Source: an uncultured Thermoleophilia bacterium (GTDB lineage Bacteria > Actinomycetota > Thermoleophilia > UBA2241). From it: 64,000 nt of DNA. Made by a program: the position numbers and the translations under genes. The notes below the pieces were generated by a model. It was not told where the DNA came from and did not search any database. It saw nothing but the letters and a program-made list of their open reading frames with translations. Of the stretch, positions 2,489 through 10,614 are shown piece after piece (the first letter of the stretch is position 1; every line of letters starts with the position of its first letter). The stretch is from positions 512,001 to 576,000 of the forward strand of contig CAVPCT010000005.1 in the NCBI GenBank assembly GCA_963702475.1, written 5' to 3'.

Positions 2489-3085
2489 ATGGCGACGAAG
2501 ACTCCGGAGAAGGCGAGCGGGCTCACCGAGATACGCTGGCACGGCCGCGGCGGCCAGGGGGCCGTCACCGCGGCCAAGATGGTCGCCGAGCTGGCCCTCG
2601 GCGAGGGCAAGTACTTCCAGGCGTTCCCGGAGTACGGGCCCGAGCGCTCCGGCGCACCCATCGTGGCCTTCACGCGCGTGAGCGACGAGCCCATCCAGGT
2701 GTACGCCGGCGTCGAGCACCCGCAGATCGTCATCGTGCTGGACTCGTCACTTCTTGCCGTGGTGGACGTCTGCAAAGGCGCTCCCGACGACGCCATCGTG
2801 CTGGTCAACAGCGAGAAGGCGCCTGCCGAGCTGCGTAAGCAGTACGGCCTCGAAGGCCACCGTCTCTTCACCGTGGCGGCCACGCGCATCGCGCTCGAGA
2901 CCATCCGGCGGCCCATCCCCAACACACCTATGGTGGGGGCTCTCACGCGCATCACGGGGCTGTTCGCGGTGGACGACGTGGCGGAGTTCCTGGAGCACGA
3001 GTTCGGCAAGAAGTTCCCGCCCAAGGTCGTGGAAGGCAACATCAACGCGATCAGGCGCAGCTACGAGGAGGTCCAGGGCGAATGA
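2489..3085 (+). CDS. porC: 2-oxoacid:ferredoxin oxidoreductase gamma subunit
   Basis: EIRWHGRGGQGAVTAA and FPEYGPERSGAP motifs. Confidence 0.93.
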   Translation: MATKTPEKASGLTEIRWHGRGGQGAVTAAKMVAELALGEGKYFQAFPEYGPERSGAPIVAFTRVSDEPIQVYAGVEHPQIVIVLDSSLLAVVDVCKGAPDDAIVLVNSEKAPAELRKQYGLEGHRLFTVAATRIALETIRRPIPNTPMVGALTRITGLFAVDDVAEFLEHEFGKKFPPKVVEGNINAIRRSYEEVQGE

Positions 3086-3453
3086 CCGTGGAGAAGAAAG
3101 CCGGCGCCAAGCACCCGGCGCCGCTCAAGAAGCCCCGCGCCAGAAAGCCCAAGTGGGACATCAGCGACGTCGCCGAGTGGGGCCCCGACCGCCACGAGCT
3201 GGGCGCGACCATCGTCGAGGCCGGCAACTCGACCTTCAACGAGACCGGCGGCTGGCGCAGCCTGGTGCCGGAGATCGAGGTCGCCAAGTGCGATGGCTGC
3301 ATGTTGTGCTACTTCTACTGCCCCGACTCCTCGATCATCATCGAGGACGGCAAGGCGGTCGGCATCGACCTCGCCCACTGCAAGGGCTGCGGCATCTGCG
3401 CCAAGGAGTGCCCGCAGACCGCCATCGCCATGCTGATCGACGCCAAGGAGTGA
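3082..3453 (+). CDS. porD: 2-oxoacid:ferredoxin oxidoreductase delta subunit (2x[4Fe-4S])
   Basis: TGGWRS, CDGCMLCYFYCPD and CKGCGICAKECP motifs; ATGA overlap with porC. Confidence 0.92.
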   Translation: MTVEKKAGAKHPAPLKKPRARKPKWDISDVAEWGPDRHELGATIVEAGNSTFNETGGWRSLVPEIEVAKCDGCMLCYFYCPDSSIIIEDGKAVGIDLAHCKGCGICAKECPQTAIAMLIDAKE

Positions 3454-3456
3454 CCT

Positions 3457-7438: not shown

Positions 7439-10400
7439 GTACCCGAACCAAAACGGCCGTGAAGGTCACCATAGATGGCCGCGAGCTCGGCGCCCGTGAG
7501 GGCGAGACCGTGCTCCAGGTCGCACGGCGCGAGGACATCGACATCCCCGCCCTGTGCCATCAGGAGGGCATGGATGCCTGGGGCGCCTGCCGCCTGTGCA
7601 TGGTCGAGGTCGAAGGCCTCGACAAGCTGCAGGCGGCCTGCACGACCTGGGTCACCGACGGCATGGTCGTGCAGACCGACACGGCCCGCGTGCGCGCCCG
7701 TCGCGAGAGCTACCTCGAGATGTACCTCTCGGACCACAACTCCTACTGCGAGGCGCCGTGCTCCCACGCGTGCCCCACGCACATCGACATCCCCGCCTAC
7801 ATGGCGGCGCTCGCCGGCGGCGACGCCGCCGGCGCGGCCGCCATCGTGCGCGAGGAGCTGCCGTTCCCCGGCATCCTTGGGCGCGTGTGCAACCGCTACT
7901 GCGAGCCGGTGTGCCGGCGCGCCGACGTGGACGAGCCCATCGCCATCTGCGCCCTGCACCGGGCAGCAGCCGACCACAGCGAGACGCGCCTGATCCCGGG
8001 CATGCCCAGCGGCCGGCGCGTCGCCGTCATCGGCGCCGGCCCAGCAGGACTGGCCGCGGCCTGGTTCCTCACGGAGCGCGGCCACAGCGTCACCATGTAC
8101 GACGCCAACCCCGAGCCCGGCGGCAGCCTGCGGTACAGCATCCCCGAGTTCCGCCTGCCCGCCAGGGTCGTGGAGAAGGAGCTCACGCCGCTGTGGGAGG
8201 CAGGCGTGCGCTTCGTCGGCGAGGCCGAGCTGGGCTACGAGGTCGACACCGACGGCCTGCTGGACGCCGGCTTCGACGCCATCGTGCTCGGTGTGGGCCG
8301 CTGGGAAGAGCCGCGGCACGTGCTGCCCGGCGACGAGGCGGCCCTCAAGGGCCTCGACCTGCTCAAGCGCGTACGCGAGGGCAGGGCCGTCAAGTTCACG
8401 CAGAAGGTCGTGGTGATCGGCGACGGCCTCACCGCCCTCGACGTGGCCCGCACAGCGCGCCGCAGGGGCGCCAAAGAAGTCGTCGTGATCTCGCCGAACC
8501 AGGCCGACGACATCCCGGCCGGTGCCCGCGACCTCAAGAACGCCCTCGAGGAGGGCGTGAAGTTCGAGTTCGGCGCCCTGGCCAAGAAGGTCAAAGCAAA
8601 GAGCGGCAAGGCGCAGGGCGTGGAGTGCGTGCGTCTGGCGACCGACAAGGGCCGCACGCACGAGGTGCGCGGCTCGCGCTTCGACGTGCCGGCCACCACC
8701 GTCGTGATGGCCACGGGCTACGCGCCGCGGCTCGGCGACAGCGCCGAGTACATCGCCGTGTCCGACGCCCGCCTGCAGGCCGACCCCTCCACCGGCCGCA
8801 CCGCCGATCCCGGCGTGTTCGCGGCCGGCGATGCCGTGGCGCGCACCGCTTCGGTCATCCACGCGGTGGCCGGCGGCAAGCGCGTGGCCCTGGCCATCGA
8901 CGCCTGGCTGCGCGGTGAGGACCTCGACGAGCTGGAGGCGCGGCTCACCGCTTTCAAGCAGCTGCCGTACCTCGAGCAGCTCAAGGCGGAGAAGGCGCTC
9001 GGCGACCTCGAGCTGCGTCTCGTCGAGCGCGACCCGGTGTGGCTCAAGATGGGCGCGGCGGCCGACCCGGCGCCCCGCGCCACCATGCCCAAGGTCGGCA
9101 GGCAGAAGCGTCTCACGGCCACCGACCTCGAGGTCGAGAAGGGCTACAGCCTGGCGGCCGCCCGCGCCGAGGCCATGCGCTGCCTGCAGTGCGAGTGCCC
9201 CAGCAACGGTGCCTGCGACCTGCAGAAGCTCGGCGTGCAGTACGACATCACCAGCAACGACCTGGTCGTGAAGGGCAATCTCGTGCGCATGGTCGAGGCC
9301 CAGTACGAGCACCCCTTCATCCGCCGCGACATGGAGCGCTGCATCGCCTGCGGGCGCTGCGTGCGCGTGTGCCGCGACGTGGCCGGCCCGGCCTGCTACG
9401 ACTTCACCGGCCGCGGCTTCATGATGAACGTCGACACGCCCTACGGGCAGGCCCTGCAGCTGGCCGACTGCATCTCGTGCGGTCGCTGCGTCACGAGCTG
9501 CCCCACCGGCGCCCTCACCTTCAACCAGCGCGAGCTGGCCGCCTTCCAGATCGACGAGAGCCGCTGCATCATGTGCCGCGAGTGCGTCGGCGTATGCCCG
9601 GTGGATGCCCTCAAGGAGACCAACCACTTCGAGGAGGCGCGCCGGCGGTGGCTCGAGCTCGTGACCAAGGGCAGCGGCCTGGCCGGCGGGCACCGCATGT
9701 GCGCCGGCTGCGGGGCGCCCATCGTGGTGCGCCAGGTGCTCATGGGCACCGACGACCCCGTGGTGGTCAGCGCCGCCACCGGCTGCCTCGAGGTGAGCAC
9801 CACCATCTACCCCTACACCTCGTGGAAGGGCAGCTACATCCACACCGCCTTCGAGAACGCGGCGGCCACGCTCTCCGGCGTGGAGACCGCATTCCGGGCG
9901 CTGAAGAAGAAGGGTCTCATCGAGGAGAACGTCAAGTTCATCGCCTTCGGCGGCGACGGCGGTACCTACGACATCGGCCTGCAGAGCCTCTCCGGCGCCA
10001 TGGAGCGCGGACACGACATGGTGTACGTGTGCTACGACAACGAGGCGTACATGAACACCGGGTTCCAGCGCTCCAGCGCGACGCCCCACGGGGCCTGGAC
10101 CACCACCAGCCCGATCGGCAAGGAGAGCTACGGCAAGGTCCAGAACCGCAAGGACCTCACCGAGATCATGGTCGCCCACGGCATCCCGTACGTGGCACAG
10201 GCCTCGCCGCACGACCCGCGCGACCTGGTGCGCAAGGCGGCCAAGGCGCTCGCCACCCCCGGCCCGGCGTTTCTCAACATCCTGGCGCCGTGCCCGCGCG
10301 GCTGGCGTTCGGACGGGGCCGAGACCATCGAGCTCGCGCGCGAGGCCGTGAACGCCTGCTACTGGCCGCTGTTCGAGGTCGTGGACGGCGAGTACAAGCT

Positions 10401-10614
10401 CACGTACCGGCCGCGTCGCAAACTGCCGCTCATCCCCTGGCTCAAGCGCCAGGGGCGCTTCGCCCACCTGTTCAAGCCGGGCAACGACGAGGCTCTCGAG
10501 CAGCTCGAGGCGTGGTCGGATCGTGAGTGGGCCAAGCTCCTGCGCAAGTGCGGCGAGCCCAGCGAGGCCGACTGGCAGGAGGAGCTGCAGGCCAACGGGT
10601 GCCTGCTGCGCTGA
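7435..10614 (+). CDS. 1059-aa fusion: HydA/NuoG-like Fe-S domains + GltD-like FAD domain + POR beta (TPP-binding) subunit
   Basis: GTG overlaps the upstream TGA. Motifs in order: GACRLCMVEV, APCSHACP, GRVCNRYCE, IGAGPAG, three CxxCxxCxxxC, then GHRMCAGCG, TGCLEV, GGDGGTYDIG...DNEAYMNTG, PCPRGW, all in one uninterrupted frame. Confidence 0.92.
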   Translation: MSTRTKTAVKVTIDGRELGAREGETVLQVARREDIDIPALCHQEGMDAWGACRLCMVEVEGLDKLQAACTTWVTDGMVVQTDTARVRARRESYLEMYLSDHNSYCEAPCSHACPTHIDIPAYMAALAGGDAAGAAAIVREELPFPGILGRVCNRYCEPVCRRADVDEPIAICALHRAAADHSETRLIPGMPSGRRVAVIGAGPAGLAAAWFLTERGHSVTMYDANPEPGGSLRYSIPEFRLPARVVEKELTPLWEAGVRFVGEAELGYEVDTDGLLDAGFDAIVLGVGRWEEPRHVLPGDEAALKGLDLLKRVREGRAVKFTQKVVVIGDGLTALDVARTARRRGAKEVVVISPNQADDIPAGARDLKNALEEGVKFEFGALAKKVKAKSGKAQGVECVRLATDKGRTHEVRGSRFDVPATTVVMATGYAPRLGDSAEYIAVSDARLQADPSTGRTADPGVFAAGDAVARTASVIHAVAGGKRVALAIDAWLRGEDLDELEARLTAFKQLPYLEQLKAEKALGDLELRLVERDPVWLKMGAAADPAPRATMPKVGRQKRLTATDLEVEKGYSLAAARAEAMRCLQCECPSNGACDLQKLGVQYDITSNDLVVKGNLVRMVEAQYEHPFIRRDMERCIACGRCVRVCRDVAGPACYDFTGRGFMMNVDTPYGQALQLADCISCGRCVTSCPTGALTFNQRELAAFQIDESRCIMCRECVGVCPVDALKETNHFEEARRRWLELVTKGSGLAGGHRMCAGCGAPIVVRQVLMGTDDPVVVSAATGCLEVSTTIYPYTSWKGSYIHTAFENAAATLSGVETAFRALKKKGLIEENVKFIAFGGDGGTYDIGLQSLSGAMERGHDMVYVCYDNEAYMNTGFQRSSATPHGAWTTTSPIGKESYGKVQNRKDLTEIMVAHGIPYVAQASPHDPRDLVRKAAKALATPGPAFLNILAPCPRGWRSDGAETIELAREAVNACYWPLFEVVDGEYKLTYRPRRKLPLIPWLKRQGRFAHLFKPGNDEALEQLEAWSDREWAKLLRKCGEPSEADWQEELQANGCLLR

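Follow-up and report, generated by a model that had tools for sequence, protein, structure and literature searches.

The stretch of DNA analysed here, termed the window, comprises 64,000 nucleotides of contig CAVPCT010000005.1 from an uncultured Thermoleophilia bacterium (GCA_963702475.1). Between positions 2483 and 10614 of the forward strand, the open reading frames and their Pfam matches reveal porC, porD, porA, bfuC, bfuB and a 1059-codon fusion gene, in that order. The junctions recR/porC, porC/porD, bfuC/bfuB and bfuB/fusion overlap by 4 nt, and the other genes are spaced by 1-13 nt. A preceding sequence-only reading had described an operon porC-porD-porA-hydC-hydB-fusion with tight or overlapping junctions, encoding six polypeptides as one unit, and the gene arrangement bears out both points. 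The features of the region are as follows:

1770..2486, + strand: open reading frame upstream of porC, which we take from its translation to be recR; its last 4 nt, stop included, lie within the start of porC
2483..3085, + strand: porC, gamma subunit of 2-oxoacid:ferredoxin oxidoreductase (POR; Pfam POR, E 3e-39)
3082..3453, + strand: porD, delta subunit (Pfam Fer4 families; two CxxCxxCxxxCP motifs)
3457..4659, + strand: porA, alpha subunit (Pfam POR_N, E 6e-72; PFOR_II, E 2e-28)
4673..4977, + strand: N-terminal BfuC extension (about 100 of approximately 125 residues); start at ATG 4673 or GTG 4661
4978..4980, + strand: extra G in a CCCGGGC run, breaking the bfuC frame (DNA alignment with three orthologues)
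4981..5516, + strand: remainder of BfuC: final two conserved extension cysteines, then the thioredoxin-like [2Fe-2S] core with cluster C1
5513..7438, + strand: bfuB (Pfam N-terminal 2Fe-2S_thioredx, Complex1_51K, SLBB, NADH_4Fe-4S and a C-terminal Fer4 pair)
7435..10614, + strand: NfnA-PorB fusion gene, 1059 codons in a single frame
7453..7683, + strand: [2Fe-2S] domain, cluster A1 (fusion residues 7-83; Pfam Fer2_4)
7744..8877, + strand: NfnL/GltD-like insert (fusion residues 104-481; Pfam Fer4_20 and Pyr_redox_2)
9181..9501, + strand: Y-junction cluster motifs of BfuA (fusion residues 583-689; aligned residue by residue with Csac NfnA 555-676)
9523..9666, + strand: third CxxCxxCxxxCP motif and following helix, directly before PorB (fusion residues ~697-744; NuoI C-terminal half)
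9679..10614, + strand: PorB (fusion residues 749-1059; 9bt4_C PorB, E 3e-84; Pfam TPP_enzyme_C)

Conservation of the operon extends to 18 loci retrieved from relatives and to locus L007. By tblastn, 17 of the 18 have recR immediately before porC, and no recR match was found at the remaining one (L101); at L008 recR adjoins a stand-alone porCDAB. A gltD-like gene directly precedes porCDAB at seven loci in relatives and at C6 in the organism's own genome. A terminator-like hairpin is located upstream of recR (1648-1662), where the terminator scan did not rise above chance. Among the POR subunits, PorC and PorD exceed the cut-offs of their NCBIfam models (TIGR02175, 202 bits against 81; TIGR02179 PorD_KorD, 89 bits against 60). 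The top model for PorA, PorA_Arch, has a cut-off of 550 that the score of 483.5 bits does not attain, and the PorB part reaches 367.8 bits against a cut-off of 405 for PorB of pyruvate synthase. Since PorA and PorB fall under these pyruvate-specific cut-offs, a 2-oxoacid other than pyruvate is a possible substrate. The retention of a genuine porD implies that the POR could still use free ferredoxin.

The fusion protein matches, from its N-terminus, Pfam Fer2_4 (residues 7-83), Fer4_20 (104-183), Pyr_redox_2 (195-481), Fer4_Nqo3/Fer4 (627-727) and TPP_enzyme_C (782-949); the absence of an H-cluster or a Mo/W domain, as claimed before, holds for the fusion, in which Pfam detects neither an H-cluster nor a molybdopterin domain. 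The predicted ligands show no variation across 32 members of the family. They include Cys 41, 52, 55 and 69 of the [2Fe-2S] domain, seven cysteines of two [4Fe-4S] sites in the NfnL/GltD-like insert, the Y-junction ligands (C583/586/588/594 and CxxCxxCxxxC at 636-646 and 679-689) and, in PorB, the cluster cysteines 756, 759, 784 and 953, the TPP motif GDG (840-842) and N869/N874. Residues 749-1029 align with PorB, while residues 9-699 align over their whole length with the NfnA proteins of three Nfn-Bfu enzymes of solved structure (E 3e-135 to 2e-111). The "HydA/GltD-like" subunit of the sequence-only reading is thus indeed fused to PorB, yet it is not a generic HydA/GltD hybrid; judged by alignment, the partner is specifically NfnA of the Nfn-Bfu/Stn enzymes.

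The second flavin site proposed earlier is retained in part. The insert keeps the FAD motif GAGPAG at residues 200-205 as well as another dinucleotide motif, G329-x-G331, but alignments and family columns place Ser-Pro-Asn where NADPH-binding relatives have Tyr-Arg-Arg, a motif present in all five PDB relatives listed, of eight matched (9bov_A, 9n5u_A, 8oh5_C, 4ylf_B and 2vdc_G). Because Tyr-Arg-Arg is missing, NADP(H) can be named only as a possible substrate, and this second site for a nucleotide may have changed or lost its activity.

An indel did not create the fusion, as the best 120 protein clusters listed all represent the fusion family; in 106 of these the alignment spans 97% or more of the query (58-91% identity, 1006-1085 aa), and matches in a single frame, without a stop between the Fe-S part and PorB, occur in many genomes. 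Of 301 genomes sampled from the class Thermoleophilia, approximately 79 yielded the fusion, in two families only. Since PorB, the thiamine-binding subunit, is covalently joined to the input subunit of the Bfu module, a physical POR-Bfu complex is very likely.

The 375 nt separating porA from the hydC gene as originally listed are coding, a point missed before, and encode a conserved eight-cysteine extension at the N-terminus of BfuC. The segment 4673..4977 contains six of the eight cysteines, all of which are invariant in 28 sequences. The extension is present in 309 protein clusters, matches no Pfam family above cut-off, and forms one continuous frame with BfuC in 12 of 12 orthologous loci. 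None of these loci has the extra G at 4978-4980, and contigs from the public runs X1 and X3 lack it at all depth over the site; the X1 contig spans 4811-5148 (337 nt) and is otherwise identical to the window. On these grounds the extra base is probably an assembly error. The frame upstream of position 5037 is open, and the hydC start assigned there is an artefact of the one-base break. Elsewhere in the assembly, a solute-binding gene split at ~44613-44718 and a nuoH in two frames are further likely single-base breaks. The core of BfuC matches Pfam 2Fe-2S_thioredx (E 4e-45). BfuB, whose HydB motifs are all legible in the translation, bears the sequence features of the bifurcating family. It combines an N-terminal [2Fe-2S] domain with an FMN/NADH site, has the [4Fe-4S] cluster B1 and a Cys/His site, and carries a C-terminal pair of [4Fe-4S] motifs (B3/B4). 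Among solved structures, its best matches are the BfuB subunits of bifurcating enzymes (7t2r_B with 811 bits, 8a6t_B, 9bov_B and 9n5u_B).

Also overlooked had been a split connector of the NuoI type. Positions 4784-4918 of the BfuC extension match the N-terminal half of NuoI (profile positions 23-66 in a genome-wide scan; 30-62 in an orthologue), and the segment preceding PorB covers profile positions 69-116 (43 bits, the fourth-best NuoI match genome-wide). By these profile matches, the two segments correspond to the two halves of a NuoI-type ferredoxin. In the same genome, a bfuC-bfuB-nfnA cassette sits inside the nuoI gene of a complex I operon, and the sole intact NuoI belongs to a different nuo operon. 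In the nuo-linked cassette, BfuC carries profile positions 2-66 and the C-terminus of the NfnA-like protein positions 67-116, the latter sharing 48% identity with the pre-PorB segment over 56 aa. The order nuoH, [NuoI-N + bfuC], bfuB, [nfnA + NuoI-C], nuoJ was checked in six other genomes and recurs in the four of the same genus. In the two from another family, nuoH and the NuoI N-half are kept ahead of a NuoF-like gene, after which come nfnA with the NuoI C-half and then nuoJ; a match to the BfuC core was not obtained. A paralogue bears both NuoI halves in a single piece ahead of PorB. A BfuB tree gave no clear answer on a sister relationship between the POR-linked and the nuo-linked cassette.

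The operon combines traits of several known systems. With the NfnABC/StnABC transhydrogenases of C. saccharolyticus (9bov/9bp5) and S. ovata (8oh5) and the archaeal Nfn-Bfu (9n5u), it shares the BfuB and BfuC cores and the A-subunit order of [2Fe-2S] domain, NfnL/GltD-like FAD insert and Y-junction clusters. It differs from them by PorB in place of the C-terminal Fdh/NuoG-like domain, the eight-cysteine BfuC extension, the missing Tyr-Arg-Arg and the location within a por operon. The prior statement that POR-associated members are genome-predicted and uncharacterised agrees with Schut et al. 2022 (PMC9304861), who predicted a Por-Bfu class in which POR genes and bfuABC are likewise clustered and pyruvate/acetyl-CoA is the proposed third substrate. 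As described there, Por-Bfu has seven subunits, including four separate Por proteins, and a small Type 2 BfuA from which clusters A3 and A5 are missing; its hosts are Chloroflexi and syntrophic Proteobacteria. The architecture reported here is therefore different, with six subunits, a fused PorB, an Nfn-type BfuA and a Thermoleophilia host; the main text of that article nowhere uses "fused", "fusion", "Actinobacteria", "NuoI" or "split". A catalytic domain fused C-terminally to a BfuA/NuoG-like cluster tree is also found in Type 1 Fdh-Bfu and in the NAD-dependent formate dehydrogenases FdsABG, where it feeds the tree via the A4/A5 branch (as described in PMC9304861 and PMC11829005), but here it is a TPP/[4Fe-4S] PorB requiring PorA, PorC and PorD rather than a pterin domain. 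The cassette between nuoH and nuoJ with its flanking NuoI halves resembles Nuo-Bfu, a complex I with a Bfu input module, and the connector halves match NuoI/TYKY; unlike in Nuo-Bfu, the acceptor of the connector in the por operon would be PorB instead of a quinone module, and the published account of Nuo-Bfu describes neither an NfnL insert nor a split NuoI (PMC9304861).

Taken together, the sequence evidence makes it on balance probable that the six subunits form one complex, in which a four-subunit-type POR and an Nfn-type BfuABC couple pyruvate oxidation to NAD+ and ferredoxin. PorB would occupy the place of the non-catalytic formate dehydrogenase-like domain of NfnA. In Csac NfnABC, clusters A4/A5 of that domain form a dead-end branch, whereas in real formate dehydrogenases the branch carries electrons (PMC11829005). 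The bridge to PorB would be a two-cluster NuoI-type ferredoxin domain built from two polypeptides, the BfuC extension and the pre-PorB segment. The iron-sulfur tree of BfuA would in this case branch into two functional arms, one reaching the TPP site of the POR and one the FAD of the NfnL/GltD-like insert, and its stem would lead to the BfuB/BfuC flavin-cluster site that handles NAD(H) and ferredoxin. In the most likely reaction, pyruvate + CoA would be oxidised while NAD+ and ferredoxin are reduced in obligate coupling, and the FAD site could serve as a further port for NAD(P)(H). The benefit of bifurcation is not obvious, because pyruvate already is a low-potential donor, a point likewise raised by Schut et al. 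(PMC9304861).

Phenylglyoxylate dehydrogenase (Pad) and the protist pyruvate:NADP+ oxidoreductase are 2-oxoacid oxidoreductases wired to pyridine nucleotide by an added flavoprotein and, unlike the operon described here, are not known to contain a NuoE/NuoF-type bifurcation core. By analogy with NADH-dependent Pad, the complex might simply be a non-bifurcating, NAD(P)+-linked enzyme, where electrons from TPP would travel along the cluster tree, arrive at the GltD-like FAD and/or the FMN of BfuB and reduce NAD(P)+ directly, with BfuBC acting just as an NADH module. A direct route from TPP to the FAD, geometrically plausible since both arms meet within BfuA, and the gltD-like genes preceding porCDAB favour this reading, as do matches of PorA, PorC and the PorB part to NCBIfam Pad models, with scores far below the cut-offs, and the strongly exergonic transfer from pyruvate to NAD(P)+ (potentials in Table 1 of PMC9304861). 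It is nevertheless unlikely: BfuB retains the N-terminal [2Fe-2S], the Cys/His site and the C-terminal [4Fe-4S] pair, which the non-bifurcating NuoF, HoxF and FdsB lack (PMC11829005), the NADPH-type motif of the FAD domain has decayed, and Wor-Bfu, with a donor of even lower potential, needs both acceptors (PMC9304861).

The complex could alternatively run as a ferredoxin-independent pyruvate synthase, bifurcating NAD(P)H at the GltD-like FAD, so that high-potential electrons reach NAD+ and low-potential electrons pass from BfuC/BfuB via PorD to the POR, which carboxylates acetyl-CoA; the PorB fusion would act as a tether only. The genome encodes acetyl-CoA synthase and MetVF/HdrA/MvhD, and the organism thus needs pyruvate made from acetyl-CoA; PorD is retained, the energetics would be the same as in the Nfn reaction if pyruvate/acetyl-CoA replaced ferredoxin (potentials in PMC9304861), and ferredoxin of Csac Nfn binds the C-terminal domains of BfuB and BfuC (PMC11829005). 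[quoted passage not shown] Least credible is an inactive system with a genuine bfuC frame break: the extra base does stand in the window, but the contigs of both runs lack it, the frame past the break is open and conserved, and the assembly contains the other likely single-base breaks.

We infer that the operon encodes a hard-wired complex of Por and an Nfn-type Bfu, whose coupling of pyruvate oxidation to NAD+ and ferredoxin would follow from its parts. It is a fused form of an enzyme class, Por-Bfu, that was already predicted in 2022 and never purified. Given that the genome encodes acetyl-CoA synthase, the pyruvate/acetyl-CoA node, at which this complex would operate, is central to the metabolism of the organism.

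The six genes of the operon follow directly on a putative recombination gene and share its orientation. Their layout in the window is as follows:

1770-2486, + strand: directly upstream of porC, a gene that we take from its translation to be recR
2483-3085, + strand: porC, operon member
3082-3453, + strand: porD, operon member
3457-4659, + strand: porA, operon member
ending at 5516, + strand: bfuC (NuoE-like), operon member
5513-7438, + strand: bfuB (NuoF-like), operon member
7435-10614, + strand: the NfnA-PorB fusion, a single gene of 1059 codons

From recR to the fusion, consecutive genes on the + strand either overlap by 4 nt or are separated by 1-13 nt. 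The operon is considered to end at 10614, since the downstream genes (10884-16926, - strand) run convergent; these code for an AMP-binding, acyl-CoA ligase-like protein and a branched-chain amino-acid-type ABC transporter set. A promoter/terminator scan yielded no promoter-like sites, and its terminator-like sites were not above chance. The alpha, gamma and delta subunits of a 2-oxoacid:ferredoxin oxidoreductase of the PorABCD type (POR) are all present, as is a beta part, which bears the TPP motif together with the four cysteines for its cluster and is not a separate polypeptide in the operon; por and bfuABC genes share one cluster, as in Por-Bfu enzymes. The sequence-only reading had described a POR joined to a HydABC/Bfu bifurcation module, with PorB fused to a HydA/GltD-like subunit. 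This observation stands: every domain named was recovered by Pfam, the HydB-like motifs are readable in the BfuB translation, and Pfam found neither an H-cluster nor a molybdopterin family in the fusion. Two independent enzymes that are mere neighbours are ruled out by the single reading frame of the fusion.

Residues 9-699 of the fusion align end to end with the NfnA chains 9bov_A (E 3e-135), 8oh5_C and 9n5u_A, and residues 749-1029 align with the PorB chain 9bt4_C (E 3e-84). The alignment with NfnA of C. saccharolyticus (9bov_A) ends at residue 699, directly after the second ferredoxin-type motif; the C-terminal Fdh/NuoG-like domain of NfnA is missing, and PorB occupies its place. Invariant in 32 family members are the four cysteines of cluster A1, the seven cysteines of the clusters in the GltD-like insert, the Y-junction motifs, a third CxxCxxCxxxCP motif, the four PorB cluster cysteines and the TPP motif. 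In the C. saccharolyticus NfnABC enzyme, electrons pass from NADPH via FAD, A7, A6, A3, A2 and A1 to B1, and ferredoxin docks on the C-terminal domains of NfnB and NfnC (PMC11829005). Clusters A4 and A5 reside there in the formate-dehydrogenase-like C-terminal domain and form a dead-end branch, termed an “evolutionary remnant” by the authors, whereas the corresponding branch conducts electrons in true formate dehydrogenases (PMC11829005).

As in the Nfn-Bfu transhydrogenases, an NfnL/GltD-like FAD domain is inserted after the [2Fe-2S] domain of BfuA. This second nucleotide site retains its FAD motif, conserved in 31 of the 32 family sequences (the lone exception looks frame-shifted), and a G-x-G motif. 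A Tyr-Arg-Arg triplet of the NADPH type follows the second Rossmann strand in all five PDB relatives printed (eight matched) and in a nuo-linked NfnA-like paralogue of the same genome; the window fusion carries Ser-Pro-Asn instead, and the positions vary across the family. Because of this replacement and variability, the use of NADP(H) by the fusion is unproven.

The partner subunits conform to the bifurcating core. BfuB contains the FMN/NADH domain (Pfam Complex1_51K, E 6e-44) and the B1 [4Fe-4S] domain (NADH_4Fe-4S, E 3e-33), flanked by 2Fe-2S_thioredx at residues 31-109 and Fer4 at 574-627, with an H-x5-C-x4-C site readable in the translation, and it aligns over nearly its full length with 7t2r_B, 8a6t_B and 9bov_B. 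BfuC harbours a thioredoxin-like [2Fe-2S] domain (Pfam E 4e-45), in which the four cysteines of the cluster do not vary among 28 sequences.

The fusion is a genuine gene rather than the product of an indel, in line with the sequence-only reading, which had considered an indel unlikely. The best 120 protein clusters listed all belong to the NfnA-PorB fusion family; in 106 of these the match spans at least 97% of the query, with identities of 58-91% and lengths of 1006-1085 amino acids. Of 301 genomes sampled from the class, at least 70 have a single-frame match that crosses the NfnA/PorB junction, a lower bound, as 53 matches lie outside those listed; at least nine further genomes cross the junction with interruptions by contig ends or frame changes, and among the matches listed the junction-crossing genomes fall only into two families (f1 and f4). 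A phylum-wide sample of 401 genomes gave a junction match in only three, namely the window's genome, one f1 and one f4 member, and a 50%-identity representative library held a single full-length fusion (P0105) among its best 150 matches; the family therefore amounts to roughly one 50%-identity cluster. Taken together, these counts indicate a narrow but well populated family. A search for longer PorB forms returned only the NfnA-PorB fusion family, and a related-locus search of genome contigs, dominated by the PorB peptide pattern, kept 80 loci, one of which (L007) is a full-length fusion. Among sequencing runs, the highest share of sampled words in any run was 0.40 or less. The ESM Atlas lists clusters of approximately 1100 amino acids combining TPP_enzyme_C and Pyr_redox_2 under labels of other phyla (score 0.86), which we treat as a lead only.

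Three relatives show a frame change within the fusion, at codon ~689 in genomes G009 (locus L098) and G016 (L099) and at codon ~500 in G017 (L100). The break at ~689 falls immediately before a cluster-cysteine codon. At L098 it is the only frame change of the locus; L099 contains several others affecting multiple genes, and many occur in four further loci (L090, L102, L103 and L104). A natural split was rejected for all three genomes, as no new start codon follows the break, and the frame changes are probably assembly errors.

Between porA and the listed start of bfuC lie 375 nt that the sequence-only reading had overlooked. These 375 nt are coding: at 12 of 12 orthologous loci, translation from a start shortly downstream of porA gives a segment with eight cysteines that continues into BfuC in a single frame. 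This N-terminal extension occurs in 309 protein clusters, all “subunit E” proteins of ~270-290 amino acids, and its eight cysteines are all invariant in 28 sequences; Pfam assigned it no family above its cut-off. In the window the frame is broken by an additional G within the CCCGGGC run at 4978-4980. The extra G is missing, at all depth over the site, from contigs of two public runs, one of which is otherwise identical to the window over 337 nt, and an assembly error is the likeliest explanation of the break. Two further genes of this genome are likely affected by single-base assembly errors: an SBP_bac_5 solute-binding gene (window 43792-45758, - strand), split into two overlapping ORFs matching profile positions 1-211 and 213-360, and a nuoH gene on contig C1 (240124-241054), read in two frames. 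AlphaFold2 gave a low-confidence model of the extended BfuC (mean pLDDT 56.5, ~30 over the extension).

A second cassette in the same genome helps to identify the extension. On contig C1 (240500-247000, locus L107) the order is nuoH, a short N-terminal segment fused to a NuoE-like protein, a NuoF-like gene, an NfnA-like gene with the GltD insert and a short C-terminal segment, and nuoJ. The two short segments correspond to the two halves of NuoI, the N-terminal half being joined to the first gene of the cassette and the C-terminal half to the last; on the NCBIfam NuoI profile (121 positions) they match positions 2-66 and 67-116. The window operon displays the same complementarity, with positions 23-66 in the BfuC extension and 69-116 in the fusion just before PorB, the fourth-best NuoI match of the genome. 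All of these half-matches lie below the family cut-off. In the window, the two CxxCxxCxxxCP motifs of the putative NuoI-type connector, each with its adjoining segment, lie on different polypeptides. The only intact NuoI of the genome belongs to another nuo operon. Among six other genomes, the full C1-type arrangement recurs in the four that belong to the same genus; the remaining two, from another family, retain the NuoI halves and gave no BfuC-core match.

An orphan paralogue on contig C3 (31622-33079, equivalent to L105:623-2080; 485 amino acids) combines a two-motif ferredoxin domain, matching NuoI positions 33-120 in one piece, with a PorB that is 70% identical to that of the fusion, and its first motif region shares 50% identity over 46 amino acids with the BfuC extension. 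No porA was found near this gene, which is conserved in many genomes of its genus; its product might act as a substitute beta subunit and so release POR from the Bfu module. AlphaFold2 modelled the NuoI-like-PorB paralogue with low confidence (mean pLDDT 46.3). A complex prediction, in which the BfuC extension was the partner of PorA and fusion residues 690-1059, gave a median of 0.54, compared with 0.00 and 0.00 in controls with the partner replaced and 0.48 with PorA replaced; these scores weigh neither for nor against binding.

Since the NuoI halves are complementary, the bfuC-bfuB-nfnA cassette appears to sit inside a NuoI-type ferredoxin gene, the host being, as judged from these alignments, nuoI of complex I in one case and the ferredoxin gene preceding PorB in the other. 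The halves may reassemble into a two-cluster bridge, which would most simply explain how the C1 complex I comes to have a NuoI at all. Tentatively, and with slightly less than even confidence, we envisage bfuC-bfuB-nfnA as a portable “bifurcation plug” bounded by NuoI halves that re-associate after translation, so that one module would connect to complex I in one setting and to the TPP site of POR in the other, forming a four-port hub. If this holds true, the ports of the redox hub would be 2-oxoacid/acyl-CoA, NAD(H), ferredoxin and a second nucleotide.

How does the operon relate to known systems? In the accessible text of the defining study, Por-Bfu is a prediction only, comprising 12 sequences with seven subunits in Chloroflexi and Proteobacteria, four separate Por subunits and a Type 2 BfuA without A3 and A5 (PMC9304861). 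In contrast, PorB is fused in the window, and an A3-type motif and the NfnL insert are present. The words “fused”, “fusion”, “Actinobacteria”, “NuoI” and “split” are absent from the main text of that study, the supplements of which may list related sequences. In the literature searched, only one other paper names Por-Bfu, in a passing remark (PMC12318220), and two more, in their accessible portions, mention por, nuo and gltD genes of related organisms without remark on a fusion (PMC7325909, PMC5736913). Literature on Wood-Ljungdahl metabolism or bifurcation in Thermoleophilia, on porB/nuoF/nuoE/gltD, on NfnABC-pyruvate fusions and on phenylglyoxylate/PadH contained nothing on this architecture, and no description of an NfnA-PorB fusion was found in the literature searched. 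The fusion operon is a variant of the known, uncharacterised Por-Bfu kind with two features that we did not find in that literature: an Nfn-type BfuA whose remnant domain gives way to PorB, and an apparent division of the NuoI-type connector between BfuC and BfuA.

In one actinomycete MAG (L008), recR is followed by stand-alone porCDAB with a PorB 65% identical to that of the fusion, an arrangement consistent with a cassette insertion between porA and porB. A BfuB tree of 16 rows, built from tblastn segments spanning at least query residues 200-550 (shorter hits such as C5:730794, C5:299807 and the frame-broken C3:612851 were left out), groups the POR-linked BfuBs in one clade (99/99); the relation of this clade to the nuo-linked and other paralogues was not resolved in this tree. 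Besides this operon, the window's genome has four or more loci for 2-oxoacid oxidoreductases, as well as several additional paralogues of BfuB. A GltD-like gene lies directly upstream of porC-porD-porA-porB in this genome (C6:55271-59570) and at seven further loci (L069, L070, L072, L073, L076, L077 and L086), the hosts being Gaiellaceae, other Actinomycetes MAGs and a Sulfobacillus MAG; this arrangement looks like a nucleotide-linked POR lacking the NuoEF core.

Starting from gene order, the fusion, the conserved ligands, the split halves of NuoI and the homologies found for each part, we propose a single complex. Its TPP site would be linked to the BfuA cluster tree by way of the PorB cluster and then the NuoI-type bridge, and PorD may belong to this chain. 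The GltD-like FAD would sit on the other arm of the tree, and the BfuB/BfuC site would handle NAD(H) and ferredoxin. Judged by its covalent position, the POR arm would enter at A4; alternatively, by analogy with complex I, it could enter at the A3-type cluster. The interpretation put forward in the sequence-only reading, a six-polypeptide complex that would couple 2-oxoacid turnover to NAD(H) and ferredoxin, is partly supported and made more precise.

The substrate may be pyruvate; the best NCBIfam models are pyruvate synthase PorA (483.5 versus a cut-off of 550) and PorB (367.8 versus 405), both below cut-off, with 2-oxoisovalerate models ranking next. The favoured reaction would be the oxidation of pyruvate, coupled to the reduction of both NAD+ and ferredoxin. 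In the reverse direction, electrons entering on the BfuA side are too weak for pyruvate synthesis. One rival is a pyruvate synthase that needs no ferredoxin and draws its electrons from the low-potential branch. The other rival is a simple NAD(P)-linked enzyme; against it speak the N-terminal [2Fe-2S]-type domain, the Cys/His site and the two C-terminal [4Fe-4S] motifs of BfuB, which are absent from non-bifurcating NuoF/HoxF. Coupled pyruvate oxidation was proposed for Por-Bfu by Schut and colleagues, who demonstrated coupling for Wor-Bfu, as stated in the available text (PMC9304861).

The window's genome encodes acetyl-CoA synthase. At 48775-55532 the window contains a multi-flavin protein of 1518 amino acids (HdrA-like/GltD-like) and after it MvhD (FlpD), a MetV-like protein (DUF5981) and MetF, a methylene-tetrahydrofolate reductase set typical of Wood-Ljungdahl organisms. 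At 58085-60434 the gene of a corrinoid (B12-binding) protein precedes that of a full-length methyltransferase of the MtmB family (459 amino acids). Methanogen MtmB carries a pyrrolysine codon; the window homologue has no in-frame stop at this position.

The covalent PorB-BfuA fusion provides the strongest sequence-level evidence that Por-Bfu enzymes are single physical machines, and with fewer subunits and a fixed stoichiometry the fused form would be easier to purify. As a catalytic module replaces the dead-end branch of NfnABC, the family is a natural test of the modularity of the BfuA cluster tree, and the split NuoI connector, if confirmed, would show how bifurcation modules attach to different enzymes. 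The enzyme would sit at the pyruvate/acetyl-CoA node of uncultured Thermoleophilia with a Wood-Ljungdahl pathway, where it may set the balance of NADH, a second nucleotide and ferredoxin.
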